From Pristiophorus japonicus (lineage: Eukaryota), in the NCBI RefSeq assembly GCF_044704955.1, contig NC_091979.1, positions 330,646,001-330,710,000 on the forward strand: DNA of 64,000 bases, read 5' to 3'. The notes beneath the pieces are model-generated. The model was given only the letters and a program-made list of their open reading frames with translations. It was not told the DNA's origin and searched no databases. Below are positions 17,190-60,614 of this stretch, one piece after another. How positions within the stretch are numbered: the first letter of the stretch is position 1; every line of letters starts with the position of its first letter. Position numbers and translations under genes: made by a program.

Positions 17190-19847
17190 TCACTAGACCC
17201 TGTTTCTGTTTATATTACACTAGACCCTGTCTCTGTTTATATTACACGAGACCCTGTCTCTGTTTATATTACACTAGACCCTGTCTCTGTTTATATTACA
17301 CTAGACCCTGTCTCTGTTTATATTACACTAGACCCTGTCTCTGTTTATATTACACTGGGCCCTGTCTCTGTTTATATTACACTAGACCCTGTCTCTGTTT
17401 ATATTATACTAGACCCTGTCTCTGTATATATTACACTAGACCCTGTCTCTGTTTATATTACACTGGGCCCTGTCTCTGTTTATATTACACTAGACCCTGT
17501 CTCTGTTTATATTACACTAGACCCTGTCTCTGTTTATATTACACTAGACCCTGTCTCTGTTTATATTACACTGGACCCTGTCTCTGTTTATATAACACTA
17601 GACCCTGTCTCTGTTTATATTACACAAGACCCTGTCTCTGTTATATTACACTAGACCCTGTGTCTGTTTATATTATAATAGGTCCTGTCTCTGTTTATAT
17701 TATACTATACCCTGTCTCTGTTTATATTACACCAGACCCTGTCTCTGTTTATATTACACCAGACCCTGTCTCTGTTTATATTACACTAGACCCTGTCTCT
17801 GTTTATATTACACTAGACCCTGTCTCTGTTTATATTACACTGGACCCTGTCTCTGTTTATATAACACTAGACCCTGTCTCTGTTTATATTACACTAGGCC
17901 CTGTCTCTGTTTATATTACACTAGACCCTGTGTCTGTTTATATTATAATAGGTCCTGTCTCTGTTTATATTACACTAGGCCCTGTCTCTGTTATATTACA
18001 CTAGACCCTGTGTCTGTTTAGATTATAATTGGTCCTGTCTATGTTTATATTGCACTAGACCCTGCCTCTGTTTATATTACACCAGACCCTGTCTCTGTTT
18101 ATATTACACTAGACCCTGTCTCTGTTTATATTACACTAGACCCTGTCTCTGTTTATATTACACTAGGCCCTGTCTCTGTTTATATTACACGAGACCCTGT
18201 CTCTGTTTATATTACACTAAGCCCTGTCTCTGTTTATATTACACTAGACCCTGTCTCTGTTTATATTACACTAGGTCCTGTCCCTGTTTATATTACACTA
18301 GACCCTGTCCCTGTTTATATTACACTAGACCCTGTCTCTGTTTATATTACACTAGGCCCTGTCTCTGTTTCTATTACACTAGATCCTGTCTCTGTTTATA
18401 TTACACGAGACCCTGTCTCTGTTTATATTACTCGAGACCCTGTCTCTGTTTCTGTTACACTAGACCCTGTCTCTGTTTATATTACACTAGGCCCTGTCCC
18501 TGTTTATATTACACTAGACCCTGTCCCTGTTTATATTACACTAGACCCTGTCTCTGTTTATATTACACTAGGCCCTGTCTCTGTTTCTATTACACTAGAC
18601 CCTGTCTCTGTTTATATTACACGAGACCCTGTCTCTGTTTATATTACACTAGACCCTGTCTCTGTTTATATTACACTAGACCCTGTCTCTGTTTATATTA
18701 CACTAGACCCTGTCTCTGTTTATATTACACTAGACCCTGTCTCTGTTTATATTACACTGGGCCCTGTCTCTGTTTATATTACACTAGACCCTGTCTCTGT
18801 TTATATTATACTAGACCCTGTCTCTGTATATATTACACTAGACCCTGTCTCTGTTTATATTACACTGGGCCCTGTCTCTGTTTATATTACACTAGACCCT
18901 GTCTCTGTTTATATTACACTAGACCCTGTCTCTGTTTATATTACACTGGACCCTGTCTCTGTTTATATTACACTAGACCCTGTCTCTGTTTATATTACAG
19001 TCGGCCCTGTCTCTGTTTATAATACACTAGACCCTGTCTCTGTTTATATTGCACTAGACCCTGTCTCTGTTTATATTACACTAGACCCTATCTCTGTTTA
19101 TATTATACTAGACCCTGTCTCTGTTTATATTGCACTAGACCCTGTCTCTGTTTATATTACACGAGACCATGTCTCTGTTGATATTATAATAGGTCCTGTC
19201 TCTGTTTATATTACACTAGACACTGTCTCTGTTTATATTACACTAGACCCTGTCTCTGTTTATATTACACGAGACCATGTCTCTGTTTATATTATAATAG
19301 GTCCTGTCTGTTTATATTACACTAGACACTGTCTCTGTTTATATTACACTAGACCCTGTCTCTGTTTATATTACACGAGACCATGTCTCTGTTTGTATTA
19401 TAATAGGTCCTGTCTCTGTTTATATTGCACTAGACCATGTCTCTGTTTATATTGTAATAGGTCCTGTCCCTGTTTATATTACACTAGGTCCTGTCTCTGT
19501 TTATATTGTAATAGGTCCTGTCCCTGTTTATATTACACTAGACCCTGTCTCTGTTTATATTACACTGGACCCTGTCTCTGTTTATATAACACTAGACCCT
19601 GTCTCTGTTTATATTACACTAGACCCTGTCTCTGTTTATATAGCACTAGACCCTGTCTCTGTTTATATTGCACTGGACCCTGTCTCTGTTTATATTACAC
19701 TAGACCCTGTCTCTGTTTATATTACACTAGACCCTGTCTCTGTTTATATTACACTAGGCCCTGTCTCTGTTTATATTGCACTAGGCTCTGTCTCTGTTTA
19801 TATTACAATCGGTCCTGTCTCTGTTTATATTACACTAGACCCTGTCT
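17190..19847 (-). repeat. 27-bp satellite array in inverted orientation (ACCCTGTCTCTGTTTATATTACACTAG)
   Basis: Reverse complement of the 1-12 kb unit, dominated by the ATAAAC variant. Confidence 0.98.
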
Positions 19848-20799
19848 CAAGTGGCCTCACAAAGTAACAGAGTGATTGAAATAATTTTGAAAAACTGAAA
19901 GGAGAGGTACACACTGAGCCAGTACAGCATTACATCAGTTTTTAAAAGAGGCAAGAATCTAAATGACGTGTTGTTTGAGCAGAGTTCAGGCAACCAGGAC
20001 TCTGGTGACAAGCAACCTGGGACATGTAAATAGCTGCAAATCCAAAACCAGATACAAAGCAGGAGCATGGGGAAACAGATTCATAAGCCGAAAGATTAAA
20101 TGCGAGCTGCCCAGTGTAATTTACGGCAATCTGATGCAAACAATGCTACATCTTGTATAACAGGGAACCAGGGAACTGTCAATGAACCAGTCTTACAGGG
20201 TACCTCAGTGCACCAGAAGAGAACATGAAGGCAAATCTATCAGCAGACGTTTCATGGAACGTGGGGTTCAGTCCCTGGAAATTATGTGGCTTGAAACCAA
20301 TATGAGCTGGACAAGCACACAAAGGAAAAAGACAGAGAGAGATTCTGGGAATCAGAAACCCAGTTACCAAATTGCCTCAATCAAATATAAAGCAGGAAAT
20401 CTCTGACCCAGACCCAAACCTAAAGTATCCACAAAAAACTAACCCAACTCCCATGGAAAGCCTACAGTAACGCTAACCCTATCTCACAAACCCAAACCCT
20501 GACGCAAACCACAACACCAACCCTAATCCCAAATTCCAACATAACCTCTACTTTAACCCTAATGACACTAACCCGAATGACCCCAACACTACCGACCCGA
20601 ACTCTAAGCTAAACCCTGAACCTAAAATACCTTCAACCATAATTCTTATCTCCATCTTAAGCATGGCTACTCTTTCAACTAGCTACACCCAATTTAAAGA
20701 CTCTAACACATGCCTTGAAATCCAACTACATCCTGAGCTCTAGCTGGATAATAGCAAGTAGAATTATACAAAAAGCAATAAAAGGCATGTGACAAATAA

Positions 20800-30889: not shown

Positions 30890-31150
30890 AAAGACTTGCA
30901 TTTATATAGCACCTTTCTCGACATCAGGATGCCCCAAAGTTCTTTAGAGATAATCAAGTACTCTTTGGAGTGTTATCACTGTTGTAATGAAGGGAAACGC
31001 GGCAGCCAATTGCGCACAGCAAGATCCAACTACAGCAATGTGATACATGACTAAATGATCTGTTTTAGTGAAGTTGGTTGAGGGATAAATATTGGTCAAA
31101 CACAGGGGAGAACTCCCCTGCTCTTGTTCGATATAATGCCGTGGGATCTT
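30890..31150 (-). mobile_element. Deu-domain SINE 3' half
   Basis: Reverse complement of the 14.75-14.97 kb SINE core plus tail (GACTTGCATTTATATAGC). Confidence 0.75.
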
Positions 31151-31364
31151 TGGGGAATTGGACACGGAGTAAATGTGAGCTGTTTGTGGGGAATGTAAAT
31201 CCACACACTGATTCACTTTTATACTGAATATGTTTTGGATAGACGGTATATAATCCCCAGCAGTGTTTCGGCAATCAAAGTCAAGATAATTTTGGGGAAT
31301 GGACACAAAAGACGGATTATTAATGGTTAATTATATTTTACACAGCTGGGCTCAGACAGGAAAA

Positions 31365-31460
31365 CAGGGGAGGAGTCAGTCTGCAGCTGGGGGAGGTGTG
31401 TGACTCCCAGTCCCATCTCTCTCACACACACACACAGGGCTCCGGACAGTTTAAATAGCG
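31365..31460 (+). promoter_or_regulatory. VH promoter
   Basis: TATA-like TTTAAATA at ~31450, ~95 bp before the ATG. Inverted pair GGAGTCA (31372) / TGACTCC (31401) around E-box CAGCTG. Confidence 0.55.
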
Positions 31461-31545
31461 GGACCCAGCTCCAGGTTCACAATCAGGAGGCGGTGTTGCG
31501 GCGCCGAGACACGCTCCCGAGTCAGTTACACCGAGAGACCCGACG

Positions 31546-31591
31546 ATGGGACTTGCCCCGTGTCTCTGTTTGTTTCTGGCCTGCTTCACCT
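31546..31591 (+). CDS. IgH leader exon (MGLAPCLCLFLACFT)
   Basis: ATG, hydrophobic signal peptide, phase-1 donor GTGAGT at 31592, 122-bp intron. Confidence 0.93.
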
Positions 31592-31713
31592 GTGAGTATT
31601 CCTCGCTGCTTCCGTGACACAATAGAAGGCAGCTTCAGATATTGTGTTTTTATTTCTATTCATTGATGTGAATGTTCTCCAATGTAATTACAATTTATTT
31701 CATTCACTGACAG

Positions 31714-32016
31714 ATGTCCGGTCCGATATCGTGCTGACCCAGTCGGAATCTGTGTCGAGGAAGCCCGGAGAATCTCACAAACTGTCCTGTTCAGTGAGCG
31801 GGTTCAGTCTGGACAGCTACTACATGCACTGGGTTAAACAAGTTCCCGGGAAGGGGCTGGAATGGCTGCTTGCTTACCATAAACCGTCCAGTACCATATA
31901 TTACGCGCCTGGAGTGGAAGGTCGGATCATCCCTTCAAGAACATCTTCCACAACCTACATCGAGATCAAGAATCTGAGAACCGAAGACACCGCCATGTAT
32001 TACTGTGCAAGAGACA
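31714..32016 (+). CDS. IGHV: IgH V segment (VRS-DIVLTQSESVSRKPGESHKLSC...WVKQVPGKGLEWL...EDTAMYYCARD), IgW-like
   Basis: Acceptor CAG at 31711-13, open frame, conserved Cys/Trp/YYC, followed by a 23-RSS. Confidence 0.97.
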
Positions 32017-32055
32017 CACAGCGACCTGAACACGTCCTGGGCTCGTACAGAAACT
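32017..32055 (+). other. V 23-RSS
   Basis: CACAGCG, 23-nt spacer, ACAGAAACT. Confidence 0.92.
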
Positions 32056-32414
32056 GAACCAGAGCAATTGCAGCAACTTCCATCCAATTCTAGGTCAGTA
32101 ACGGTGTAAAACATATCAAGAGATGTGTTTAACCTAGATTGGAAGAATGTATTTGCTACAGCAATAAACTGGCTAAGAATAAAATGCACATTAACGAGCT
32201 TTGTATAGATGAAGATGGTTTATGGTTACTGTTTACAGTGTCCCGGATTAACAACGAGGATTCAATGAAAGCTTTAATATTGTATCTTTGGGCATGATTT
32301 TGGTCCAATTCTGCCCTCTGAGAAAAAAATCATCAATAGATAATCAAAATCTGCTAAACCCTTCTGTTGATTGAGCGATTTTTTTCCTGCCAGCGTTAAT
32401 CAGAGAGTGAGTGC

Positions 32415-32486
32415 AGTATTTGTGCGGGTCCCTGTCACTGTGCTACAACAGTGGGAGGCACAGCAATTATTGTCAATACAAAAACC
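32415..32486 (+). other. Single D segment (CTACAACAGTGGGAGG, 32443-32458) flanked by 12-RSS on both sides
   Basis: AGTATTTGT-12-CACTGTG [D] CACAGCA-12-ACAAAAACC. All three forward frames are open (LQQWE / YNSGR / TTVG). Confidence 0.93.
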
Positions 32487-32812
32487 CCTCAGCACTAATT
32501 GAGTGAATCAGGGTCAGTGCTCGCTTTCACAATCCACTGTATCTGCAGTGAAGTCCTACTTGTGTCCAGCACTGTCCTAACAGCACAGTTTAACATGGAT
32601 TAACTGTGACAATTATTCTATGATCAGTTGGTAATTTCATGAACTGTTCACGGGTTGCTCTGTGAAATATATAACATCAGGGCATTTATAAAGAGTGAAC
32701 AATATCCATGAACACATTTATCATTTTATGAAGATCCATTTTGGTTTTACTTTGCCTCTGGGATGTGAATATTTAATCTAATGTTGGATTTCTCTCTGTT
32801 TTACGCAGTGCC

Positions 32813-32851
32813 AGTTATTGTGTGACCCAGCCCAGGGAATGTAACACTGTG
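32813..32851 (-). other. J 23-RSS
   Basis: AGTTATTGT, 23-nt spacer, CACTGTG. Confidence 0.9.
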
Positions 32852-32899
32852 ACTATCTCGACTACTGGGGACCAGGCACCATGGTGACAGTGACAGCAG
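32852..32899 (+). CDS. IGHJ: IgH J segment (YLDYWGPGTMVTVTA), IgM-type
   Basis: WGxG motif, donor GTAAG at 32900. Confidence 0.96.
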
Positions 32900-34205: not shown

Positions 34206-36351
34206 CTGGTCACAATTAACGTGAGCGGAACATTTTAGAGGCTGCAGTCAATTTCTGATTATGTCTGAAATGATTTTAATAACAGCATACTGATTCCACC
34301 GCAGTTCAAGGAGGGTCTGAAATTAATTGTTATCTCCCTGTTTTACACAGATGCATGACAGATTGTATTCAATTATCAATTAAATGCGAGTTTTAAATTG
34401 CAATTTGTAAATGTCATAAATCTGACAGGTTATTAAATTCTTAAATCATGTAATTTCTTCAATTTTATTTGTTATTTCATAGCGAGACAATTATCACTAA
34501 GTTAATCTGGAACCGTTTGTAAGATGAGAGGCTGACCGGTAGAGGTCGCTGGCAGTCAAAGCATTGTTCATATGATTCTATTTAAATTCAAGGAAAGTGC
34601 AGACTGACAGACACACGACCCATTCAAATTCAAGCTGATTAATTTAATCACAAAAGGGCAATGTTAGTTTTTAATTGAATAACAACACCCTGTCTCCCAA
34701 AGCTGTGCTGTATATGGGATAGAATTATAGACAGTGAACAGGTTACATTTAAGAGTTATGTTTAACTATCATTCATGTTAAATTGATCAACAAAATCTCT
34801 CCTCCATTTGCTCATTAAATGTCAGTGCCGCAGATTGCCTGAATGATTGGTTCCCCGCCAATATTACGTTGATCATTCTGGAACGTAGTTTCAATAAATA
34901 GCTGAATATATTTAATAATTAATTTTCGGGTATTGTGTGAATTACGGGAGTAAAATATAAAAAGATTGTCTGTTATTAAATAGCGGAGTCTCTGTTACTG
35001 ACTGCACACTGGCCTTTTGCCTTTTACTTCATAAAATATATTTTATAGTTAAGATTGAGGAAACTATTTAAACTGGAGAGCCCTGATTTAGTAATCATGC
35101 GGCGTTACAGCCCACCGATAGTTAGTGAGATGTAACCACGGCCAGACTTTGAACTATTTTAAATTGTCCACTCCTAAATCCATCATGTGAAATCCACTCT
35201 GAGAAAAGATGGAGTTTATGTTGTATCAGACAGTTCAGAAACATACAGAGTTTACAAGTGTGTAGATAGAGAGCGGGAATGTTTTGGAAGCTCGTGACCA
35301 TTTTAACTTATTCAAATGCGATTTGATTCAAGTAAGCATAATAAATTAGTCTGAATGTCTTTATCTAATAATTTGATTCTTAATATTTTAACATTGATAA
35401 GTGCCATATTAATTTAAACGAAACGCTAATATTTCACACGTTACCAAGCAGAAACAGGATTAAAATGAATATTAAATAATGTTATTATAATGCAGTATTA
35501 CATCAGCTAACATCAATATTACCTTAGAGTATAATATCAGTGTGAACTCATTAACCATTAATGATCTCCCACAATTGCGTTGTATACTGGACAGGATTAC
35601 AGTTACTGCAAAATCTCTAGGATAGGAGAGAATTTTAAATTATGCCGAACATTAATTTAGTAAACAATACCTGTCTTACTCAGCTGTGTTCAGATAGATA
35701 AGATGTCGCCGCAGATTTTAATGGATTAATTTCGTGTTTTACAGGTTATATTTAATTATGAAATTATATTGAACCAGTGGGTAATCGGTTTTCAATGTAA
35801 CTGTTTCCTGGTTTGTTAACTTCCTGCTCTGACAGGGAGTCCCGATTACATGCAGCAAATTACCCAGAAATGTAAATTATTTCGATATAATCTTTTCAGG
35901 ATGTGTAAGATTGTAGAGAGGGCGGGAGAAATGATTGCAAGTAGAAGAACGTTTTTACAATTAATATCAGTTTAGTTTTAAAAACGTGCAGTTTTGAGAT
36001 GTCGGAAATTGACAAGAGATCAATTGTAAATCAGCTTCATTGAAAGTGAGAGATTGAACCGATCTATCTGCTGAGAGCACGATTGTGCCTGTTCTGTTTC
36101 TGTGTGCCTGCTCACTGTGTGAGAATCAGGAGCCCTCCTGACGGGTTGTAAACCTTCCGGTTTGTCCTCTTGTATTTCATGGAGTAAAATTCGACTCATG
36201 TATTTGAGAAGCTTGTATCTGTGAGAAATGTGACAGTTTCAGATTAAGTTTGAGGAGACACCTCAGAAATGGGACCAATAACGCATTTCGTGACATTTAG
36301 AAGCAGCAGTTCAAAAACACTTCTGTTAGACTGTAGAAGGAGTTTTAATCA

Positions 36352-36870
36352 GTTTCTAACCCGTGCTGTACCTGCCCCGGGAGTGCCTGATGGGACAGTG
36401 TAGAGGGAGCTTTACTCTGTATCTAACCCATGCTGTACCTGCCCTGGGAGTGTTTGATGGGACAGTGTAGAGGGAGCTTTACTCTGTATCTAACCCCCTG
36501 TACCTGCCCTGGGAGTGTTTGATGGGGACAGTGTAGAGGGGGCTTTACTCTGTATCTAAACCCGTGCTGTACCTGCCCTGGGAGTGTTTGATGGGACAGT
36601 GTAGAGAGAGCTTTACTCTGTATTTTACGCGTGCTGTACCTGCCCTGGGTCAGTGTGATGGGACAGTGTAGAGAGAGCTTTACTCTGTATCTAACCCCCT
36701 GTACCTGCCCTGGGAGTGTTTGATGGGACAGTGTAAAGGGAGCTTTACTCTGTATCTAACCCGTGCTGTACCTGCCCTGGGTCAGTGTGATGGGACAGTG
36801 TAGAGAGAGCTTTACTCTGTATCTAACCGGAGATACCTGCCCTGGGAGTGTTTGATGGGACAGTGCAGAG
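36352..36870 (+). repeat. ~67-bp tandem repeat in the J-C intron (~8 copies)
   Basis: Same unit as 15.8 kb. Confidence 0.95.
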
Positions 36871-39590: not shown

Positions 39591-39890
39591 CAACACCATC
39601 TCCTCCCAAACTCTACGCCCTGCTCTCCTCCTGTGAACAGCCCAACACTGGCGGCCCCGTCACCTACGGCTGCTTGGCGATGGACTATTCCCCGGAAATC
39701 ACCAGCCTTTCCTGGAGGAAAGAAAAAGAGCCGATCGACACTGGATTGAAGATCTACCCGTCAGTGCTCAACAAGAAGGGAGCCTACACCCTGAGCAGCC
39801 AGTTAACCATCACCGAGTCAGCGGTGGGGAGCAGCGCAATATATTGCGAGGTTCGACGAGGTGGGTCGGTCTGGGACGTAAAAATGCCAG
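39591..39890 (+). CDS. IGHM: Cmu1 exon ([17 protein letters not shown]...[16 protein letters not shown])
   Basis: AG/GT phase-1 boundaries, C1-set Cys/Trp/Cys, shark-mu signature GCLAMDYSP...YPSVLNKKG, light-chain Cys retained. Confidence 0.96.
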
Positions 39891-39959
39891 GTGAGTGTTG
39901 TGGGATACAGGGAGGTAAACTGTGAAAAGCAGAGAAGTTCTATACAAGCTTGGTTAGAC

Positions 39960-41015
39960 CAGACTGAGAGTCATGTGCACAGTTCTGTTCTCCATCTCAC
40001 ACTGAGAGTCATGTGCACAGTTCTGTTCTCCATCTCACACTGAGAGTCATGTGCACAGTTCTGTTCTCCATCTCACACTTAGAGTCATGTGCACAGTTCT
40101 GTTCTCCATCTCACACTGAGAGTCATGTGCACAGTTCTGTTCTCCATCTCACACTTAGAGTCATGTGCACAGTTCTGTTCTCCATATCACACTTAGAGTC
40201 ATGTGAACAGCTCTGGTCTCCATCTCACACTTAGAGTCATGTGCACAGTTCTGTTCTCCATCTCACACTTAGAGTCATGTGCACAGTTCTGTTCTCCATC
40301 TCACACTGAGAGTCATGTGCACAGTTCTGGTCTCCATCTCACACTTAGATTCATGTGCACAGTTCTGGTCTCCATCTCACACTTAGAGTCATGTGCACAG
40401 TTCTGTTCTCCATCTCACACTTAGAGTCATGTGCACAGTTCTGGTCTCCATCTCACACTTAGAGTCATGTGCACAGTTCTGTTCTCCATCTCACACTTAG
40501 AGTCATGTGCACAGTTCTGTTCTCCATCTCACACTTAGAGTCATGTGCACAGTTCTGGTCTCCATCTCACACTGAGAGTCATGTGCACAGTTCTGTTCTC
40601 CATCTCACACTTAGAGTCATGTGCACAGTTCTGTTCTCCATCTCACACTGAGAGTCATGTGCACAGTTCTGGTCTCCATCTCACACTTAGATAACGTGCA
40701 CAGCTCTGGTCTTCATATCACACTAAGAGTGCTGTGTACAGGTCTGGTTTCCACATCATATTTAGAGTACTGTACACAGTTAAGTTCTCCATAACATATT
40801 AAGAGTGCTGCGTACAGGTCTGGTCTCCATAACACACCTCACTGTGCACAGTTCCGGTCTCCAAATCACAATTCGAGCACTGTGCATAGTGCTGGTTTCC
40901 ATATCACACTTAGAGTACTATGCACAGTTCTGATCTCCATATCACATATAGAGTACTGTATACTGCTCTAAGCTCCAGATCATATCAACTGTAATGTGCA
41001 TAGTGCTGGTTTCTA
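39960..41015 (+). repeat. 38-bp minisatellite (AGAGTCATGTGCACAGTTCTGTTCTCCATCTCACACTT) within a CR1 fragment (~39925-41495)
   Basis: About 19 homogeneous units plus degenerate units. The flanks are contiguous CR1 ORF2 3' sequence. Confidence 0.93.
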
Positions 41016-41571
41016 TGTTATAAGAATGATACAGAGGAACAAGGACGACACCAGAACTGAAAGATTGTAACTATCAAGAATTGTTGACCCGGGTGGGCCA
41101 ATTTTCTCTGGAAAAGGGAAGTCTGAGGGGTGATTAAATAGAGGTCGTTAAAATTTTGAAGGGATTTGAAAGGTTAGTCGTGGATAAAATATTTCTGCTT
41201 GAGCAGGAGGCCGATATTGGGGCCATAAATATAAGATATGCACGAATAAATCCAATAGTGAATTCAGGAGAAAGTTCTGCACCCAGGGAATTGGTAGAAT
41301 ATGGAACTCCCTTCCGCAAGGAATACGAGGCGAATAGCATATATGCATTTCAGGGGAATCTAGATAAGCCCACGAGGGAGAAAGGGATATAAGGTTATGT
41401 TGATAGGGGGTAGGCAGTAGGGAGAGAGGAGGTGCATGTGGAACATAAACATAGGTCTGTTGGGCCGAATGGCCTGTTGCGGTGTTGTAGATTAAATGTT
41501 AAAAACCGCTTTGCAGTTCTTAATTGTTTGGATTGTCACAAATAATCCCAATAAAATGTATTTTCTTGCAG

Positions 41572-41883
41572 ATCGTGTGGTACATCATCCAACTGTTATC
41601 CTTACCCTGAGTTCCAGGGAAGAAATCACCAGCAGCAGATCTGTAACTGCCGTGTGTTCAATCATCGATTTCCGGCCAAAGTCACTGACCGTGAATTGGC
41701 TGAAGAATGGACAACTTGTGCATTCGGACTTCGTCACCTCTCCCGTCTATGAGGTGAACGGGAACTTCTCGGCGACCAGTCGGCTGACATTCCCCGCCGG
41801 GGAATGGTTCGCCCACTCGGTCTATACCTGCCAGGTCTCTCATCAAGAATTCATCCAAAGCCGAAACATCACCAGATCTCCGG
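41572..41883 (+). CDS. IGHM: Cmu2 exon ([12 protein letters not shown]...[20 protein letters not shown])
   Basis: AG/GT phase-1 boundaries, CSIIDFRP...WLKNG...YTCQVSH. Confidence 0.96.
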
Positions 41884-44155: not shown

Positions 44156-44464
44156 ATGATTCCTCGTGCAACGATCCAAAAATCACTCTTCCGCAGCCGT
44201 CCCTAGAACAGGTCTTACTGGAGGCGACAGTGACCTTAACCTGCATCGTGTCTAATGCTCCTTATGGAGTCACCGTGACCTGGATACACGAAAAGAAGAA
44301 TTTGCAATCAGGGATTGCCAGCCAACCGGGAGAGGCTCCCGACAGTGTGATCAGCAAGTTAGACATCTCGACACAAGACTGGCTGAGTGGGGATGTGTTT
44401 GACTGCCTGGTGAGCCATCGGGATATGCCGACTCCTATCAGAGGTTCCATCCGCAAGGAAACGG
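44156..44464 (+). CDS. IGHM: Cmu3 exon ([30 protein letters not shown]...RKET)
   Basis: AG/GT phase-1 boundaries, C1-set motifs, N-terminal inter-chain Cys. Confidence 0.96.
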
Positions 44465-44982: not shown

Positions 44983-45371
44983 CTAAAGATCCGCGGGAAC
45001 CGGCCGTGTCTGTCCTCCTGCCCTCGGCAGAAGAAGTCTCCGCTCAGAGGTTGGTCACCCTCACCTGCTTAGTGAGAGCTTTCTCCCCCCGAGAGATCTT
45101 CGTCAAGTGGACCGCCAATGGCAAGCCGGTGAATTCGGGCAACTACAAGAACACCGAGGTGATGGCGGAGAACAGCAGCTCTTTCTTCACGTACAGCCTG
45201 TTATCCATTGCAGCCGAGGAGTGGGCCAGCGGTGCTTCTTACTCCTGTGTGGTGGGACATGAAGCCATTCCCTTAAAGATCACCAACAGAACGGTCAATA
45301 AATCCAGCGGTAAACCCAGTTTTGTGAACATTTCTCTTGTTCTGATGGACACCGTCAATTCTTGTCAATGA
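44983..45371 (+). CDS. IGHM: Cmu4 plus secretory tailpiece (...[24 protein letters not shown])
   Basis: Acceptor at 44981-82, internal donor G|GTAAA at 45309/45310 for the membrane form, NIS sequon and penultimate Cys. Confidence 0.97.
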
Positions 45372-45415: not shown

Positions 45416-45804
45416 GGCCTTTTCTTCCAATCGTGAATTACACACACAGCCGCTCAAGTAATTTTGTTTCCCATTTTTGCCAAGGAGCGGGCTGTTAATC
45501 TGAAGCAGAATATTTGTCGGACTTGGGCCCAAAGCTTGTACAGCCAGTGCTCCCAGCTCAGATACACCACAGGTTGGAGGCAGAGTGAGGCTCTTTCATG
45601 ACAGGGTTCCTCAAAGTAATTTCAGCAACTTCCGTCCCACTGGGAGAACCTGCAAAGTTCCATTTTCCGACAAACAAATGCAGGACATTTAGATCTCGGT
45701 GTCCTTGTTTCCCGTGTTGCTCATCCCTTCAGATTTGGGGCCAGTTTTATTTGGCAGCGTCGCACCCTCTGGGATCTGAAATGAGGGTCACACACGAACA
45801 CGAA

Positions 45805-46515
45805 CTGTACCTCACCAGAGAGAGGGGAAAGATCAATTGTTAACCCCCTGTACTCCCCACTCTCCCACCAGAGAGAGGGGAAAGGTCAATTGTTAACCCC
45901 CTGTACTCCCCACTCTCCCACCAGAGAGAGGGGAAAGGTCAATTGTTAACCCCCTGTACTCCCCACTCTCCCACCAGAGAGAGGGGAAAGGTCAATTGTT
46001 AACCCTCTGTACTCCCCACTCTCCCACCAGAGAGAGGGGAAAGGTCAATTGTTAACCCCCTGTATTCCCCACTCTCCCACCAGAGAGAGGGGAAAGGTCA
46101 ATTGTTAACTCTCTGTACTCCCCACTGCCCCACCAGAGAGAGGGAAAAGGTCAATTGTTAACCCCCTGTACTCCCCACTCTCCCACCAGAGAGGGGGGAA
46201 AGGTCAATTGTTAGCCCCCTGTACTCCCCACTGCCCCACCAGGGAAAGGGGAAAGGTCAATTGTTAACCCCCTGTACTCCCCACTCTCCCACCAGAGAGA
46301 GGGGAAAGGTCAATTGTTAACCCCCTGTACTCCCCACTGCCCCACCAGAGAGAGGGGAAAGGTCAATTGTTAACCCCCTGTACCTCCCACTCTCCCACCA
46401 GAGAGATGGGAACAGTCAATTGCTTACTTACTCTCCCTCCCACTGCCACAGCACAGTGAGGGCAAAGGCTAATTGTTTACCCACTGTACCTCCCACTGCC
46501 CCACCAGAGAGAGAG
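45805..46515 (+). repeat. 53-bp minisatellite (TAACCCCCTGTACTCCCCACTCTCCCACCAGAGAGAGGGGAAAGGTCAATTGT)
   Basis: About 11 good copies plus degenerate ones. Confidence 0.93.
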
Positions 46516-46604
46516 AGGCCCATGGTTGAATTGTTGCATTCCGTCGGCTGACTTCACATGGCGTCTCACACTGAACACAGAGCGGGGAAGAATGCGTGTA
46601 AAAG

Positions 46605-48974: not shown

Positions 48975-51881
48975 ATGAGGAAAAGTGTAGGGCAGAGAAA
49001 CCCAAGGCAAAGAACAAAAAGGGCCACTGTACAGCAAAATTCTAAAAGGACAAAGGGTGTTAATAAAACAAGCCTGAAGGCTTTGTGTCTTAATGCAAGG
49101 AGTATCCGCAATAAGGTGGATGAATTAATTGTGCAAATAGATGTTAACAAATATGATGTGATTGGGATTACGGAGACGTGGCTCCAGGATGATCAGGGCT
49201 GGGAACTCAACATTCAGGGGTATTCAACATTCAGGAAGGATAGAATAAAAGGAAAAGGAGGTGGGGTAGCATTGCTGGTTAAAGAGGAGATTAATGCAAT
49301 AGTTAGGAAAGACATTAGCTTGGATGATGTGGAATCTATATGGGTAGAGCTGCAGAACACCAAAGGGCAAAAAACGTTAGTAGGAGTTGTGTACAGACCT
49401 CCAAACAGTAATAGGGATGTTGGGGAGGGCATCAAACAGGAAATTAGGGGTGCATGCAATAAAGGTGTAGCAGTTATAATGGGTGACTTTAATATGCACA
49501 TAGATTGGGCTAGCCAAACTGGAAGCAATACGGTGGAGGAGGATTTCCTGGAGTGCATAAGGGATGGTTTTCTAGACCAATATGTTGAGGAACCAACTAG
49601 GGGGGAGGCCATCTTGGACTGGGTGTTGTGTAATGAGAGAGGATTAATTAGCAATCTCATTGTGCGAGGCCCCTTGGGGAAGAGTGACCATAATATGGTG
49701 GAATTCTGCATTAGGATGGAGAATGAAACAGTAAATTCAGAGACCATGGTCCAGAACTTAAAGAAGGGTAACTTTGAAGGTATGAGGCGAGAATTGGCTA
49801 GGATAGATTGGCGAATGATACTTAGGGGGTTGACTGTGGATGGGCAATGGCAGACATTTAGAGACCGCATGGATGAAGTACAACAATTGTACATTCCTGT
49901 CTGGCGTAAAAATAAAAAGGGGAAGGTGGCTCAACCGTGGCTATCTAGGGAAATCAGGGATAGTATTAAAGCCAAGGAAGTGGCATACAAATTGGCCAGA
50001 AATAGCAGCGAACCTGGGGACTGGGAGAAATTTAGAACTCAGCAGAGGAGGACAAAGGGTTTGATTAGGACAGGGAAAATGGAGTACGAGAAGAAGCTTG
50101 CAGGGAACATTAAGGCGGATTGCAAAAGTTTCTATAGGTATGTAAAGAGAAAAAGGTTGGTGAAGACAAACGTAGGTCCCCTGCAGTCAGAATCAGGGGA
50201 AGTCATAACGGGGAACAAAGAAATGGCGGATCAATTGAACAAGTACTTTGGTTCGGTATTCACTAAGGAGGATACAAACAACCTTCCGGATATAAAAGGG
50301 GTCAGAGGGTCTAGTAAGGAAGAGGAACTGAGGGAAATCTTTATTAGTCGGGAAATTGTGTTGGGGAAATTGATGGGATTGAAGGCAGATAAATCCCCAG
50401 GGCCTGATGGCCTGCATCCTAGAGTACTTAAGGAGGTGGCCTTGGAAATAGCGGATGCATTGACAGTCATTTTCCAACATTCCATTGACTCTGGATCAGT
50501 TCCTATGGAGTGGAGGGTAGCCAATGTAACCCCACTTTTTAAAAAAGGAGGGAGAGAGAAAACAGGGAATTATAGACCGGTCAGCCTGACCTCAGTAGTG
50601 GGTAAAATGATGGAATCAATTATTAAGGATGTCATAGCAGTGCATCTGGAAAATGGTGACATGATAGGTCCAAGTCAGCATGGATTTGTGAAAGGGAAAT
50701 CATGCTTGACAAATCTTCTGGAATTTTTTGAGGATGTTTCCAGTAAAGTGGACAAAGGAGAACCAGTTGATGTGGTATATTTGGACTTTCAGAAGGCTTT
50801 CGACAAGGTCCCACACAAGAGATTAATGTGCAAAGTTAAAGCACATGGGATTGGGGGTAGTGTGCTGACGTGGATTGAGAACTGGTTGTCAGACAGGAAG
50901 CAAAGAGTAGGAGTAAACGGGTACTTTTCAGAATGGCAGGCAGTGACTAGTGGAGTGCCGCAAGGTTCTGTGCTGGGGCCCCAGCTGTTTACATTGTACA
51001 TTAATGATTTAGACGAGGGGATTAAATGCAGTATCTCCAAATTTGCGGATGATACTAAGTTGGGTGGCAGTGTGAGCTGCGAGGAGGATGCTATTAGGCT
51101 GCAGAGTGACTTGGATAGGTTAGGTGAGTGGGCAAATGCATGGCAGATGAAGTATAATGTGGATAAATGTGAGGTTATCCACTTTGGTGGTAAAAACAGA
51201 GAGACAGACTATTATCTGAATGGTGACAGATTAGGAAAAGGGAAGGTGCAACGAGACCTGGGTGTCATGGTACATCAGTCATTGAAGGTTGGCATGCAGG
51301 TACAGCAGGCGGTTAAGAAAGCAAATGGCATGTTGGCCTTCATAGCGAGGGGATTTGAATACAGGGGCAGGGAGGTGTTGCTACAGTTGTACAGGGCCTT
51401 GGTGAGGCCACACCTGGAGTATTGTGTACAGTTTTGGTCTCCTAACTTGAGGAAGGACATTCTTGCTATTGAGGGAGTGCAGCGAAGGTTCACCAGACTG
51501 ATTCCCGGGATGGCGGGACTGACCTATCAAGAAAGATTGGATCAATTGGGCTTGTATTCACTGGAGTTCAGAAGAATGAGAGGGGACCTCATAGAAACGT
51601 TTAAAATTCTGACGGGTTTAGACAGGTTAGATGCAGAAAGAATGTTCCCAATGTTGGGGAAGTCCAGAACCAGGGGTCACAGTCTGAGGATAAGGGGTAA
51701 GCCATTTAGGACCGAGATGAGGAGAAACTTCTTCACCCAGAGAGTGGTGAACCTGTGGAATTCTCTACCACAGAAAGTAGTTGAGGCCAATTCACTAAAT
51801 ATATTCAAAAGGGAGTTAGACGAAGTCCTTACTACTCGGGGGATCAAGGGTTATGGCGAGAAAGCAGGAAGGGGGTACTGA
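48975..51881 (+). CDS. CR1 ORF2 (APE endonuclease plus reverse transcriptase), 968 aa
   Basis: [26 protein letters not shown] and FADD motifs, uninterrupted. The start codon is uncertain. Confidence 0.97.
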   Translation: MRKSVGQRNPRQRTKRATVQQNSKRTKGVNKTSLKALCLNARSIRNKVDELIVQIDVNKYDVIGITETWLQDDQGWELNIQGYSTFRKDRIKGKGGGVALLVKEEINAIVRKDISLDDVESIWVELQNTKGQKTLVGVVYRPPNSNRDVGEGIKQEIRGACNKGVAVIMGDFNMHIDWASQTGSNTVEEDFLECIRDGFLDQYVEEPTRGEAILDWVLCNERGLISNLIVRGPLGKSDHNMVEFCIRMENETVNSETMVQNLKKGNFEGMRRELARIDWRMILRGLTVDGQWQTFRDRMDEVQQLYIPVWRKNKKGKVAQPWLSREIRDSIKAKEVAYKLARNSSEPGDWEKFRTQQRRTKGLIRTGKMEYEKKLAGNIKADCKSFYRYVKRKRLVKTNVGPLQSESGEVITGNKEMADQLNKYFGSVFTKEDTNNLPDIKGVRGSSKEEELREIFISREIVLGKLMGLKADKSPGPDGLHPRVLKEVALEIADALTVIFQHSIDSGSVPMEWRVANVTPLFKKGGREKTGNYRPVSLTSVVGKMMESIIKDVIAVHLENGDMIGPSQHGFVKGKSCLTNLLEFFEDVSSKVDKGEPVDVVYLDFQKAFDKVPHKRLMCKVKAHGIGGSVLTWIENWLSDRKQRVGVNGYFSEWQAVTSGVPQGSVLGPQLFTLYINDLDEGIKCSISKFADDTKLGGSVSCEEDAIRLQSDLDRLGEWANAWQMKYNVDKCEVIHFGGKNRETDYYLNGDRLGKGKVQRDLGVMVHQSLKVGMQVQQAVKKANGMLAFIARGFEYRGREVLLQLYRALVRPHLEYCVQFWSPNLRKDILAIEGVQRRFTRLIPGMAGLTYQERLDQLGLYSLEFRRMRGDLIETFKILTGLDRLDAERMFPMLGKSRTRGHSLRIRGKPFRTEMRRNFFTQRVVNLWNSLPQKVVEANSLNIFKRELDEVLTTRGIKGYGEKAGRGY

Positions 51882-52657
51882 AGTTTCATGTTCAGCCATG
51901 AACTCATTGAATGGCGGTGCAGGCTAGAAGGGCTGAATGGCCTGCTCCTGCACCTATTTTCTATGTTTCTATGTTTCTAAAACCAAAACAAGAGATCGCC
52001 ATACACATATACGCAAACACTAAAGTGCACAAAATACGTCAGGCTATAGGCGAATATCGCATTAAAATGCACCCTTTGAACAGTCTCCCAACGATTGTAT
52101 TAAATAAATAATTTCTGATATAATATCTCACATTCCTCTATTCTGATGCCGCACACACACTGAATCAACGTTCTTATTTGGAAACTGATGCAAGTTAATT
52201 ATGTTCCGAACATTGACCGTCACAAATTAATCAAGATTATAACTCACATCCGGTGTCTTACCCTGTCCCCTTGACAATCTCCAAATAATTAGCTATGGAA
52301 AACTATTGTTAAAGTAATCAATATCATTCAGTAAACCTCCCTCGATATTACATCATACTATTCCCGAATGGTCGATCCTGTGACATTGATGCAAAATCAA
52401 TCAGCGTGTGACATTGAAGGAAAACTGTCATATGTTCCAACACGGACTATAGCAGGATCATAAAGGATGAGCGACTGTGGAATTAGGAACACAGATAGAT
52501 TGCTGAGAGTGATTAACTTAACACAGGACATACATTGTACATTAAATTAGAGAACAAACTAATATCTTAAGGAAAAGAAAAGACAATATATAATAATAAT
52601 ATGATATGTTGGATTAGCAAGCGATCTGAATATATTTCCTCCTCTATGGCCCCGCAG

Positions 52658-52785
52658 ATTCCTCAGATCACATCTGGAATGAAGAGTATGAGGACCAGAG
52701 CGGCAACATCTGGACAACCGCTTCCACATTCATCATCCTGTTTTTCCTGAGCATGTTCTACAGCGCTGCCGTCACTCTGGTGAAG
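52658..52785 (+). CDS. IGHM: IgM TM1 exon ([43 protein letters not shown])
   Basis: Acceptor at 52656-57, acidic spacer plus conserved antigen-receptor TM motif, donor GTGAG at 52786. Confidence 0.96.
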
Positions 52786-52926
52786 GTGAGAAGATTCAAT
52801 GCATTCGCTTCGAGCTGACTGAAGCGGTTTGACAAATCTCTAAACGTTTCATTGATAAAAAAAACCCTGAGATAAATTCCCCAAACCACTAAATCCCTGC
52901 TTTAATCTTTTATCCCTCTTTTACAG

Positions 52927-52935
52927 GTCAAGTGA
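52927..52935 (+). CDS. IGHM: IgM TM2 exon (VK*)
   Basis: Polypyrimidine tract, ACAG|GTC AAG TGA, giving the KVK tail. AATAAA at 52999. Confidence 0.93.
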   Translation, partial: VK

Positions 52936-53522
52936 TCGGCTGGATTTCGGCCGCCGTGGATTTTGCTCATCTGGTTATTTACATCACTGTGTCCTGAAAA
53001 TAAACTGTATCCTCTTGGTGATTCCCGGAGTCAATTGCCTTCAGTTTTTTCGTCTCCCTGTTGAAATGTGTGAGATAATCGTGGCTATAATGTAAATGTA
53101 TCTCGGAGTTTCATAATTGTTTGAATATCTCGTGTAAATAAGTCACTTTTCTCAATCATGATTGACAATTATTCCCTTCCCTTTATGTTGGGCCCCTGAT
53201 TCTCTCTCCCTGGTGTCTGTTGCAGTTGTACAGATAGCTGGCAGCTCAGACCGCCTGTGTTCCAGACTCAATGTGACGCTCATTTGTTATATTCAATTTG
53301 TGTTAACTTTTTAAAAACGTCTCTGTAAATTGTTCTCTGTGAAATTGTTAATAAATCTGGAATGATAAATGGAATATATTGGACTTTGCTGAGTTCCTTT
53401 CTCCAAGGCTCCTTCATACCGTGCCATTTCCCTATCACACTTTGTTTTATTTCCCTGAGAGTTACTCTTCACCCGTCCTGTCTGAGTTGTGTTGGAATCC
53501 AAGGCCTTTCGGTGGAGGAGCC

Positions 53523-53541
53523 ACTGCGCCACCTAGTGTCC
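53523..53541 (-). promoter_or_regulatory. Candidate CTCF site
   Basis: Minus strand reads GGACACTAGGTGGCGCAGT. Confidence 0.55.
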
Positions 53542-53717
53542 GATCAGTGTAACGACACATTTTCCCAGCCTTTTATGTCATGCTCCAGAGGCGAAATGAC
53601 TGCAGGGAGACCAGGCCGACCAGGCGGTCTCTTTTAATATTATGGACCTTCACGTGCCAAGTTATATTAAAGAGAAATACTCTGATCCATCACAGTCTGA
53701 TAGAGTATAGTACGTGT

Positions 53718-55978
53718 CAGAGTAAATCTCCCTCTACACTGTCCCATCAAACACTCCCAGGGCAGGTACAGCACGGGGTTAGATACAGAGTAAAGCTCCC
53801 TCTACACTGTCCCATCAAACACTCCCAGGGCAGGTACAGCACGGGGTTAGATACAGAGTAAAGCTCCCTCTACATTGTCCCATCAAACACTCCCAGGGCA
53901 GTTACAGGGGGTTAGATACAGAGTAAAGCTCCCTCTACACTGTCCCATCAAACACTCCCAGGGCAGGTACAGCACGGGTCAGATACAGAGTAAAGCTCCC
54001 ACACTGTCCCATCAAACACTCCCAGAGCAGGTATAGCACGGGTTAGATACAGAGTAAAGCTCCCTCTACACTGTCCCATCAAACACTCCCAGGGCATGTA
54101 CAGGGGGTTAGATACAGAGTAAAGCTCCTACACTGTCCCATCAAACACTCCCAGAGCAGGTATAGCACGGGTTAGATACAGAGTAAAGCTCCCTCTACAC
54201 TGTCCCATCAAACACTCCCAGGGCAGGTACAGCACAGGGTTAGATACAGAGTAAAGCTCCCTCTACACTGTCACATCAAACACTCCCAGGGCAGGTACAG
54301 CACGGGGTTAGATACAGAGTAAAGCTCCCTCTACATTGTCCCATCAAACACTCCCAGGGCAGTTACAGGGGGTTAGATACAGAGTAAAGCTCCCTCTGCA
54401 CTGTCCCATCAAACACTCCCAGGGCAGGTGCAGCACGAGGTTAGATACAGAGTAAAGCTCCCTCCACACTGTCCCATCAAACACTCCCAGGGCAGGTACA
54501 GCACGGGTTAGATACAGATTAAAGCTCCCTCCACACTGTCCCATCAAACACTCCCAAGGCAGGTACACGGGGTTAGATACAGAGAGGACAGTCCCATCTA
54601 CACTGTCCCATCAAACACTCCCAGGTCAGGTACAGCACGGGGTTAGATACAGAGTAAAGCTCCCTCTACATTGTCCCATCAAACACTCCCAGGGCAGGTA
54701 CAGCACGGGGTTAGATACAGAGTAAAGCTCCCTCTACACTGTCACATCAAACACTCCCAGGGCAGGTACAGGGGGTTAGATACAGAGTAAAGCTCCCTCT
54801 ACACTGTCCCATCAAACACTCCCAGGGCAGGTACAGGGGGTTAGATACAGAGTAAAGCTCCCTCTGCACTGTCCCATCAAACACTCCCAGGGCAGGTACA
54901 GCACGAGGTTAGATACAGAGTAAAGCTCCCTCCACACTGTCCCATCAAACACTCCCAGGGCAGGTACAGCACGGGTTAGATACAGATTAAAGCTCCCTCC
55001 ACACTGTCCCATCAAACACTCCCAGGGCAGGTACACGGGGTTAGATACAGAGAGGACAGTCCCATCTACACTGTCCCATCAAATACTCCCAGGTCAGGTA
55101 CAGCACGGGGTTAGATACAGAGTAAAGCTCCCTCTACATTGTCCCATCAAACACTCCTAGGGCAGGTACAGGGGGTTAGATACAGAGTAAAGCTCCCTCT
55201 GCACTGTCCCATCAAACACTCCCAGGGCAGGTACAGGGGGTTAGATACAGAGTAAAGCTCCCTCTACACTGTTCCATCAAGCACTCCCAGGGCAGGTACA
55301 GGGGGTTAGATACAGAGTAAAGCTCCTACACTGTCCCATCAAACACTCCCAGGGCAGGTACAGCACGGGGTTAGATACAGAGTAAAGCTCCCTCCACACT
55401 GTCCCATCAAACACTCCCAGGGCAGGTACAGCACGGGTTAGATACAGATTAAAGCTCCCTCCAGACTGTCCCATCAAACACTCCCAGGGCAGGTACAGGG
55501 GGTTAGATACAGAGAGGACAGTCCCATCTACACTGTCCCATCAAACACTCCCAGGGCAGGTGCAGCACGGGGTTAGATACAGAGTAAAGCTCCCTCTACA
55601 CTGTCCCATCAAACACTCCCAGGGCAGGTACAGGGGGTTAGATACAGAGTAAAGCTCCCTCTACACTGTCCCATCAAACACACCCAGGGCAGGTACAGGG
55701 GGTTAGATACAGAGTAAAGCGCCCTCTACACTGTCCCATCAAACACTCCCAGGGCAGGTACAGCACGGGGTTAGATACAGAGTAAAGCTCCCTCCACACA
55801 GTCCCATCAAACACTCCCAGGGCAGGTACAGCACGGGTTAGATACAGAGTAAAGCTCCCTCCACACTGTCCCATCAAACACTCCCAGGGCAGGTACAGGG
55901 GGTTAGATACAGAGAGGACAGTTCCATCTACACTGTCCCATCACACACTCCAAGGGCAGCTATAGCACGGATTAGATA
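53718..55978 (-). repeat. ~63-67-bp tandem repeat array, inverted relative to the 15.8 and 36.4 kb copies
   Basis: Reverse complement of the same unit, ~35 copies with higher-order blocks. Confidence 0.96.
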
Positions 55979-56071
55979 TGACCCAGACACTCCGGGGGGC
56001 ACAAACTCTGGGAATGATACCCAAAGCCTGGGGCCTATGAAACACACAGACAATCGCTCCATTTGTACTAT

Positions 56072-59000
56072 ACATAGACACATAGAAACATAGAAAATAG
56101 GTGCAGGAGTAGGCCATTCGGCCCTTCGAGCCTGCACCACCATTCAATGAGTTCATGGCTGAACATGCAACTTCAGTACCCCATTCATGCTTTCTCACCA
56201 TAACCCTTGATCCCCCGAGTAGTAAGGACTGCATCTAACTCCTGTTTAAATATATTTAGTGAATTGGCCTCAACAACTTTCAGTGGTCGAGAATTCCACA
56301 GGTTCACCACTCTCTGGGTGAAGACGTTTCTCCTCATCTCGGTCCTAAATTGTTTACCCCTTATCCTTAGACTGTGACCCCTGGTTCTGGACTTCCCCAA
56401 CATTGGGAACATTCTTCCTGCATCTAACCTGTCTAAACCCGTCAGAGTTTTAAATGTTTCTATGAGGTCCCCTCTCATTCTTCTGAACTCCAGTAAATAC
56501 AAGCCCAGTTGATCCAGTCTTTCTTGATAGGTCAGTGCCACCATCCCGGGAATCAGTCTGGTGAACCTTCGCTGCACTCCCTCAATAGCAAGAATGTCCT
56601 TCCTCAAGTTAGGAGACCAAAACTGTACACAATACTCCAGGTGTGGCCTCACCAAGGCCCTGTACAACTGTAGCAACACCTCCCTGCCCCTGTACACAAA
56701 TACACTTGCTATGAAGGCCAACATGCCATTTGCTTTCTTAACCGCCTACTGTACCTGCATGCCAACCTTCAATGACTGATGTACCATGACACTCAGGTCT
56801 CGTTGCACCTCCCCTTTTCCTAATCTGTCACCATTCAGATAATAGTCTGTCTCTCTGTTTTTACCACCAAAGTGGATAACCTCACATTTATCCACATTAT
56901 ACTTCATCTGCCATGCATTTGCCCACTCACCTAACCTATCCAAGTCACTCTGCAGCCTCATAGCATCCTCCTCGCAGCTCACACTACCACCCAACTTAGT
57001 GTCATCCGCAAATTTGGAGATACTACATTTAATCCCCTTGTCTCAATCATGAATGTACAGTGTAAACAGCTGGGGCCCCAGCACAGAACCTTGCGGTACC
57101 CCACTAGTCACTGCCTGCCATTCTGAAAAGTACCCATTTACTCCTACTCTTTGCTTCCTGTCTGACAACCAGTTCTTAATCCATGTCAGCACACTACCCC
57201 CAATCCCATGTGCTTTAACTTTGCACATTAATCTCTTGTGTGGGACCTTGTCGAAAGCCTTCTGAAAGTCCAAATATACCACATCAACTGGTTCTCCCTT
57301 GTCCACTCTACTGGAAACATCCTCAAAAATTCCAGAAGATTTGTCAAGCATGATTTCTCTTTCACAAATCCATGCTGACTTGGACCTATCATGTCACCTC
57401 TTTCCAAATGCGCTGCTATGACATCCTTAATAATTGATTCCATCATTTTACCCACTACCGATGTCAGGCTGACCGGTCTATAATTCCCTGTTTTCTCTCT
57501 CCCTCCTTTTTTAAAAGGTGGGGTTACTTTGGTGACACTCCATTCGATAGGAACTGATCCAGAGCCAATGGAATGTTGGAAAATGACTGTCAATGCATCC
57601 GCTATTTCCAAATCCACCTCCTTAAGTACTCTGGGATGCAGTCCATCAGGCCCTGGGGATTTATCGGCCTTCAATCCCATCAATTTCCCCAACACAATTT
57701 CCCGACTAATAAGGATTTCCTTCAGTTCCTCCTCTTTACTAGACCCTCTCACCCCTTTTATATCCGGAAGGTTGTTAGTGTCCTCCTTAGTGAATACCGA
57801 ACCAAAGTACTTGTTCAATTGGTCTGCCATTTCTTTGTTCCCCGTAATGACTTCCCCTGATTCTGACTGCAGGGGACCTATGTTTGTCTTTACTAATCTT
57901 TTTCTCTTTACATATCTATAGAAACTTTTGCAATCCGTCTTAATGTTCCCTGCAAGCTTCTTCTCGTACTCCATTTTCCCTGCCCTAATCAAACCCTTTG
58001 TCCTCCTCTGCTGAGTTCTAAATTTCTCCCAGTCCCCGGGTTCGCTGCTATTTCTGGCCAATTTGTATGCCACTTCCTTGGCTTTAATACTATCCCTGAT
58101 TTCCCTTGATAGCCACGGTTGAGCCACCTTCCCTTTTTTATTTTTACGCCAGACAGGGATGTACAATTGTTGTAGTTCATCCATGCGGTCTCTAAATGTC
58201 TGCCATTGCCCATCCACAATCAACCCCTTAAGTATCATTTGCCAATCTATCCTCGCCAATTCACGCCTCATACCTTCAAAGTTAGCCTTCTTTAAGTTCT
58301 GGACCATGGTCTCTGAATTAATTGTTTCATTCTCCATCCAAATGCAGAATTCCACCATATTATGGTCACTCTTCCCCAAGTGGCCTCGCACAACGAGATT
58401 GCTAATTAATTCTCTCTCATTACACAACACCCAGTCTAAGATGGCCTCCCCCCTAGTTGGTTCCTCGACATATTGGTCTAGAAAACCATCTCTTATAACT
58501 CCAGGAAATCCTCCTCCACCGTATTGCTTCCAGTTTGGTTAGCCCAATCAATGTGCATATTAAAGTCATCCATTATAACTGCTGCACCTTTATTGCATGC
58601 ACCCCTAATTTCTTGTTTGATGCCCACCCCAACATCACTACTACTGTTTGGAGGTCTGTACACAACTCCCACTAATGTTTTTTGCCCTTTGGTGTTCTGC
58701 AGCTCTACCCACATAGATTCCACACCATCCAAGCTAATGTCCTTCCTAACTATTGCATTAATCTCCTCTTTAACCAGCAATGCTACCCCACCTCCTTTTC
58801 CTTTTATTCTATCCTTCCTGAATGTTGAATACCCCTGGATGTTGAGTTCTCAGCCCTGATCATCCTGGAGCCATGTCTCTGTAATCCCAATCACATCATA
58901 TTTGTTAACATCTATTTGCAGTTAATTCATCCACCTTATTATGGATACTCCTTGCATTAAGACACAAAGCCTTCAGGCTTGTTTTTTTTAACACTCTTTG

Positions 59001-60455: not shown

Positions 60456-60614
60456 ACGCACACAGATAGCCAAGAAAGAGACGAAAAGTGGAGGGACTTT
60501 ATTTGAGAGAGAGATGAGGGACCACACAGTGTCTGCAGGTACATTTGCAGCCTTCTGCCCGGTGAGCACCACAAAATACAGGCAATGAGATAGACAGGAA
60601 AAATCAAATTGTGA

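Follow-up and report, generated by a model that had tools for sequence, protein, structure and literature searches.

Organization of the IgM cluster

The window, a stretch of 64,000 nucleotides from Pristiophorus japonicus, contains a cartilaginous-fish IgM cluster, with V, D, J, C-mu1 to C-mu4, a secretory tail, and transmembrane (TM) exons in one unit (Table 1). The frames of the leader, V, J, C-mu1 to C-mu4, secretory tail, and TM exons are open and their splice sites are proper. Scanning for RSSs revealed a V with a 23-spacer signal, one 16-nt D with 12-spacer signals on both sides, and a J with a 23-spacer signal, followed by intact IgM constant exons. The V-RSS is separated from the D 5' RSS by 359 nt and the D 3' RSS from the J-RSS by 326 nt, confirming the arrangement given in a preliminary description of this DNA (V-23, ~360 bp, 12-D-12, ~325 bp, 23-J).

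It had also been stated that no other complete RSS pair is present. A relaxed scan, permitting up to 5 of 16 mismatches and spacers of 11 to 13 and 21 to 24, indeed found no further pair; it yielded just the four RSSs, off-by-one readings, and a weak heptamer within the D. Shuffling the sequence 500 times gave a mean of 0.012 RSSs (maximum, 1) compared to the four observed. No remnant of the D1-D2 interval of paralogous clusters was detected in the window (best E, 0.18). No concealed or degenerate second D is present in the window. The weak heptamer within the D, combined with the 5' nonamer, can be read as a 23-spacer RSS with four mismatches (32415 to 32453).

Repeats were noted in several parts of the window. 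A 27-nt tandem satellite, with about 444 matching places, extends from position 1 to about 19850 and includes an inverted block near 17640 to 19850. Minisatellites of about 66, 38, and 53 nt are located at 36330 to 36870, 39950 to 41020, and 45800 to 46530, in the J-C and C introns, and minisatellites in these introns also occur in paralogues. Three copies of a 1.3- to 1.4-kb element, 96 to 99% identical, surround the TM exons (50585 to 62922), two of them being inverted relative to the first.

Table 1. Features of the IgM cluster (window positions) and locations of other immunoglobulin loci in the genome
Feature	Position	Strand	Basis
Leader exon	31546..31591	+	ATG, GT donor; run X5 shows splicing from 31591 to 31714
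VH exon, IgW-like V family, frame open	31714..32016	+	Identities, tree
V 23-RSS	32017..32055	+	RSS scan
V-D1 interval, IgM-type	32056..32414	+	Over its first 100 nt, similar to conventional IgM and not to IgW
D1-derived 5' 12-RSS, facing upstream	32415..32442	-	27/28 to subfamily D1
Fused D, 16 nt	32443..32458	+	Parses against 12 paralogous D1 and common D2
D2-derived 3' 12-RSS	32459..32486	+	27/28 to subfamily D2
D2-J interval, same subfamily	32487..32812	+	92-93% to two-D paralogues
J 23-RSS	32813..32851	-	RSS scan
JH segment YLDYWGPGTMVTVTA	32852..32899	+	GT donor
C-mu1 exon	39591..39890	+	73% to horn shark IgM C region P0249; splice sites
C-mu2 exon	41572..41883	+	Open frame, splice sites
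C-mu3 exon	44156..44464	+	Open frame, splice sites
C-mu4 exon with secretory tail	44983..45371	+	84% to Triakis IgM P0244
Transmembrane exons TM1 (to 52785) and TM2 (from about 52927)	52658..52935	+	76% to P0252; boundaries read from sequence
Conventional-V IgM loci	G000 C23 and small contigs; L122-L127, L142-L150, L219-L274, L069, L070, L096		
IgW clusters	G000 C13, C3915, C3873, C3281		

The single D and the paralogous clusters

Paralogues were collected by a DNA search of the shark's own genome (best 40 of 82 candidates) and by a pattern search with the D1 5' RSS, which gave 30 matches. At least 15 clusters belong to one dispersed IgM subfamily and at least 15 to the conventional IgM family. 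Among the matches listed, 12 of the 15 subfamily clusters are arranged as V-23, 12-D1-22, 12-D2-12, 23-J. The other three are the window and C158, which have one D, and C645, in which the D is joined to J. Four paralogues were fully retrieved; all contain IgM constant exons and, among the matches listed, keep the order of the window all the way from the V to C-mu4, with identities of about 87 to 92%. Left out of the subfamily count were C25:3284615-3285018 (G000), a frameshifted subfamily V pseudogene fragment accompanied by a C-mu1 with a stop, and C1198 (G000), a subfamily-type constant region for which V or J was not found in the 15 kb upstream. No description of the subfamily was found in the literature searched, the coverage of which lacked most primary shark Ig papers.

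Comparison to these paralogues and the resulting parses confirm the earlier proposal that the single D is a D1-D2 fusion. Its 5' RSS is identical to the subfamily D1 5' RSS at 27 of 28 nt and its 3' RSS to the subfamily D2 3' RSS at 27 of 28 nt; the 5' side had correctly been described as D1-like and the 3' side as D2-like. In all best parses against the 12 paralogous D1s and the common D2, the 5' part of D1 is followed by the 3' part of D2, with 12 nt lost at the joint and no N addition needed. These parses leave two substitutions, or three when the commonest D1 is used. Both breakpoints fall within the 28 coding nt of D1 plus D2. The outer signals (D1 5' and D2 3') were kept, both inner RSSs and the 299 nt between them are gone, and relative to paralogue C1937 the window lacks 299 nt. 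For most D1 variants, D1 and D2 overlap at the joint by 4 nt, and with the variant carried by 2 of the 12 paralogues the overlap is at least 8 nt. A two-D cluster of the window's own lineage, which would fix the ancestral D1, was not present in the assembly.

Among four paralogues tested, C645 is the closest to the window upstream of the D (89.7 and 94.1%) as well as downstream of J (90.2 to 92.1%), and trees place it as the sister of the window (support of 98/100 on the V-D segment and 92/89 on the concatenated segments). C645 has no D-J interval, and the sister comparison thus omits 32459 to 32851. It is itself a V-DDJ cluster (L003:2404-2430) in which only 6 nt of D remain. In its J, the WG is preceded by Asp in place of Tyr. 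The V exon of the window is nearer to that of C1937 (96.2%) than to that of C645 (94.4%), which indicates that exchange among paralogues has occurred.

In the other single-D cluster, C158 (L002:2394-2416), the assembly shows a D1-D2 joint with D1 trimmed by 4 to 5 nt, D2 whole, and no mismatches. C158 is the sister of a two-D cluster (support, 97/98). Because the joint is different and the nearest relative has two Ds, the V-DD-J form appears to have arisen twice in the subfamily. A shared origin of the two single Ds was rejected, as they measure 16 and 23 nt and belong to different clades.

Since V-DD-J is a normal RAG product and a somatic intermediate, found in shark lymphocytes and thymocytes according to one report (PMC2435157), the single D might represent a somatic rearrangement or an assembly artifact captured in the genome. 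Among the contigs listed for the sequencing runs examined, none matches the window exactly over the D. Nevertheless, DNA run X1 contains a 375-nt contig that bridges the D gap-free with 13 differences from the window and thus represents a second version (allele or copy) of the single-D form, of the same length and 3.5% different. Its depth is 7.9, whereas multi-copy contigs in this run have depths of about 110 to 150, and the nearest assembled single-D paralogue differs at 30 positions plus a 7-nt gap. The window D has also acquired two further substitutions, and the motifs shared by D1 and D2 are far shorter than assembly words. We therefore regard capture of a somatic or artifactual joint as very improbable. 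No contig bridging a single D was among those listed for runs X9, X16, and X17, which derive from other organisms, and this result carries no evidential weight.

In run X5, a 152-nt contig is identical to the V-D interval of the window. Other X5 contigs jump from 32093/32094, a GT donor after the V-RSS, to 32808/32809, an AG acceptor before the J-RSS, as expected of a germline transcript from paralogues in which splicing leaves out the D region. The GT donor motif after the V-RSS is conserved in conventional IgM.

The IgW-like V exon and the flanks of the D

The amino acid identity of the window V is 69.5% to a named horn shark IgW V (P0125) and 88.5% to a catshark V (P0121). Within its own genome, it is 61 to 63% identical to four of six IgW Vs, 50 to 54% to the other two, and 52 to 56% to conventional IgM Vs. 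In a midpoint-rooted tree of 97 columns, it groups with IgW Vs of the same genome and horn shark W26 (93/89), apart from the IgM Vs; two other IgW-like Vs fall elsewhere in this tree. The lean to IgW is located in FR1-CDR1 and, weakly, in the promoter, whereas the leader/intron, mid-V, FR3, and V-RSS lean to neither isotype, FR3 scoring equally with IgM. All 15 subfamily clusters found combine an IgW-like V with IgM, and 12 of them still have two Ds. The gene number of catshark P0121 adjoins that of an IgM constant gene whose contig is equally long, and its read-through matches the window V-RSS at 13 of 14 residues. Judged from these sequences, the change from IgW to IgM likeness falls within the V exon or at its end, and the catshark gene has it too. 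The arrangement therefore predates the D fusion, be it through a swap or through retention of an ancestral V. The subfamily (window 31100 to 32150, L002 to L015, and P0121/P0252) has at least 15 members, is dispersed outside C23, and is shared with catshark. A protein search for full-length V relatives returned tandem-V arrays.

The preliminary description had suggested that, if D1 came from an IgW cluster and D2 from an IgM cluster, one inter-cluster event would account for both the single D and the hybrid gene, and that a switch of best match inside 32443 to 32458 would support this. This switch is absent. The same two-D IgM paralogues match on both sides of the D, at 89 to 91% over the V-D segment (89 to 95% for subfamily paralogues overall) and at 91 to 94% over the D-J segment. 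Likewise, C645 is the nearest paralogue on either flank, before the D and after J, so that no donor switch lies at the D. For comparison, the first two constant domains of P0311 served to find IgW clusters in the genome; we take this protein to be IgW from its layout of a V plus six C domains. BLAST matched the V-D and D-J intervals of the window within the subfamily (87 to 93%) and in none of three IgW clusters. A 12-RSS pattern search of the genome recovered no IgW clusters, and P0286, considered as a possible IgW, is IgM.

The finer comparison gave the same picture. The D 5' RSS differs from the conventional IgM D1 signal at 1 of 28 nt and from that of IgW D1 at 9 of 28, and the D 3' RSS shares 17 of 28 nt with IgW D2. 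Directly after the V-RSS, a stretch of 100 nt can be aligned to five conventional IgM loci (z, 5.6 to 8.0), with no alignment signal against three IgW loci (z, -0.3 to 0.4). An IgW D1 joined to an IgM D2 by inter-cluster RAG activity would fit the grouping of the V with IgW Vs and a weak IgW match just before D1 (z, 3.7 to 5.8), although that match is a single 19-nt motif. It is at odds with the IgM-type 5' RSS and V-D interval, with the different Ds, spacers, and 9.5- to 29-kb V-D intervals of IgW, and with the same IgW-like V on IgM in 12 two-D paralogues (among the matches listed). Germline rearrangement is, moreover, reported to be intracluster (PMC2191167, PMC5192425). With the IgW-to-IgM homology switch lying elsewhere, upstream of the D, these comparisons refute an inter-isotype junction at the D, and we attach next to no probability to an event of this kind.

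Somatic switching that combines IgW V with IgM constant regions has been reported in nurse shark (PMC4279169). The window gene likewise combines an IgW-like V with IgM constant regions; however, that switching is described as somatic and subsequent to VDJ joining, whereas the window gene is germline and unrearranged, with an IgM-type V-D interval, Ds, and J-C intron.

Origin of the D fusion and germline joining

The germ-cell RAG joining of D1 to D2 put forward earlier is, based on the paralogue parses, also the reading that we rate most likely. With a probability of roughly two in three, the fusion arose within one IgM cluster as a deletional coding joint made by RAG in a germ cell and was then inherited. 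The ancestor would have had the V-23, 12-D1-22, 12-D2-12, 23-J form still displayed by the paralogues. RAG would have paired the 22-spacer signal of D1 with the 12-spacer signal of D2, and the ends, after losing 12 nt in total, would have been sealed without N bases at 4 to 8 nt common to D1 and D2. The IgW-like V would be an older and separate trait of the whole subfamily. A RAG coding joint is favored because both ends of the deletion are within the coding cores, because longer repeats were passed over, and because such joints recur in this genome.

It should be noted that the joint has neither an N nor a P nucleotide that would prove RAG involvement. None is needed, and the junction equally represents an exact in-register D1/D2 crossover without an added base. 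The 299 nt could have been deleted independently of RAG if the similar D1 and D2 cores underwent slippage, unequal crossover, or microhomology-mediated repair. Most D1 variants give an overlap of 4 nt and one gives at least 8 nt; the latter exceeds what is usual for classical end joining and, if the ancestral D1 was the variant of the 2 of 12 paralogues, is exactly what homology-driven deletion gives. Such a deletion would, however, have left unused two longer (12-nt) exact repeats close by, one of them in a segment where the two 5' RSS regions agree at 23 of 33 nt, and would have cleanly excised RSSs in a genome where excisions of this type recur. We assign it a real but minor chance.

A germline RAG hybrid joint is improbable. 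Here, the D1 coding end, trimmed by 2 nt, would have been joined to the D2 3' 12-RSS with three added bases and D2 wholly deleted. The first 13 nt of the D match one D1 variant save base 1, the last three have one mismatch to D2, and horn shark provides a documented example of a hybrid joint in the germline (PMC2193153). On the other hand, two of the three "added" bases equal the end of D2, hybrid joints are reported as the less common outcome (PMC2193153), and N addition would be needed, which is scarce in shark germline joints, where trimming and little TdT activity are described (PMC2193156).

The cluster would now rearrange in two steps, V-D and D-J. Two junctions, a reduced germline template for CDR3, and possible D inversion follow from the RSS layout as predictions, in line with the shorter CDR3s, two junctions, and D inversion foreseen in the preliminary description. 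A total of 40 germline nt would be available for CDR3 versus about 52, with one junction fewer, and all three forward D frames are open.

Germline joining is widespread in the IgM loci of this genome. The D2-J interval, including the D2 3' RSS and the J RSS, is absent from 74 of 74 conventional-V IgM loci examined. In 44 of them, the D2 5' 12-RSS directly adjoins a J that is intact or almost so, including 9 with a V-23, 12-D1-22/23, 12-J arrangement that resembles TCR-beta and would permit direct V-J joining; the remainder are V-DJ (20 loci) or fully joined (10 loci). Many of the 74 are near-identical copies or have V stops, and independent joining events are thus far fewer. The IgW-like-V subfamily is the only one in this genome in which we found IgM clusters that are still fully split. 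We offer as a doubtful proposal that germline RAG, acting at the border of V and RSS, swapped an IgW V exon into an IgM cluster before the catshark split, founding an IgM subfamily that now contains the only fully split IgM clusters found in the genome, with all conventional IgM fixed as V-23, 12-D-22/23, 12-J or further joined, and that the window is one step in a repeated, possibly selected, removal of junctions.

Clusters of the kind to which the window seems to belong, partially germline-joined V-DD-J, are already known in sharks. In horn shark clone 1113, IgM reportedly carries a VH of a divergent family together with only one D. The window family is different in having at least 15 members, mostly with two Ds. 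The second VH family of horn shark, that of clone 1113, is reported as monotypic (PMC2191167). A germline D1-D2 fusion is described for the type III IgNAR cluster of nurse shark (PMC4622739), which resembles the window in its inheritance, the removal of one junction, and the restricted CDR3, whereas the window is IgM and its two Ds were reduced to one. Partially germline-joined IgM clusters are reported from horn shark and little skate (PMC2193153, PMC5192425, PMC2193156). As there, split and pre-joined clusters coexist, RSSs were cleanly removed, and N addition is little. Unlike in those species as reported, V-DD-J appears to have arisen twice in one subfamily, and close two-D paralogues allow the joint to be parsed, which gives this locus part of its value.

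Taken alone, the D fusion would merely add to the RAG scars that sharks are known to inherit. Its context, an old IgM subfamily with an IgW-like V in a genome where D2 is pre-joined to J at every conventional IgM locus examined, outweighs it. The locus is also of value as part of a natural series of V-D-D-J, two independent V-DD-J, and V-DDJ clusters, which would make the effects of junction loss on CDR3 length, D inversion, and neonatal expression measurable.

Three IgW clusters have the arrangement V-23, 9.5 to 29 kb, 12-D1-23, 12-D2-12, J, their V-D1 intervals comparing with about 0.4 kb in IgM and their D cores and spacers differing from those of the window. In C3281, V is joined to J, representing a germline-joined IgW VDJ.
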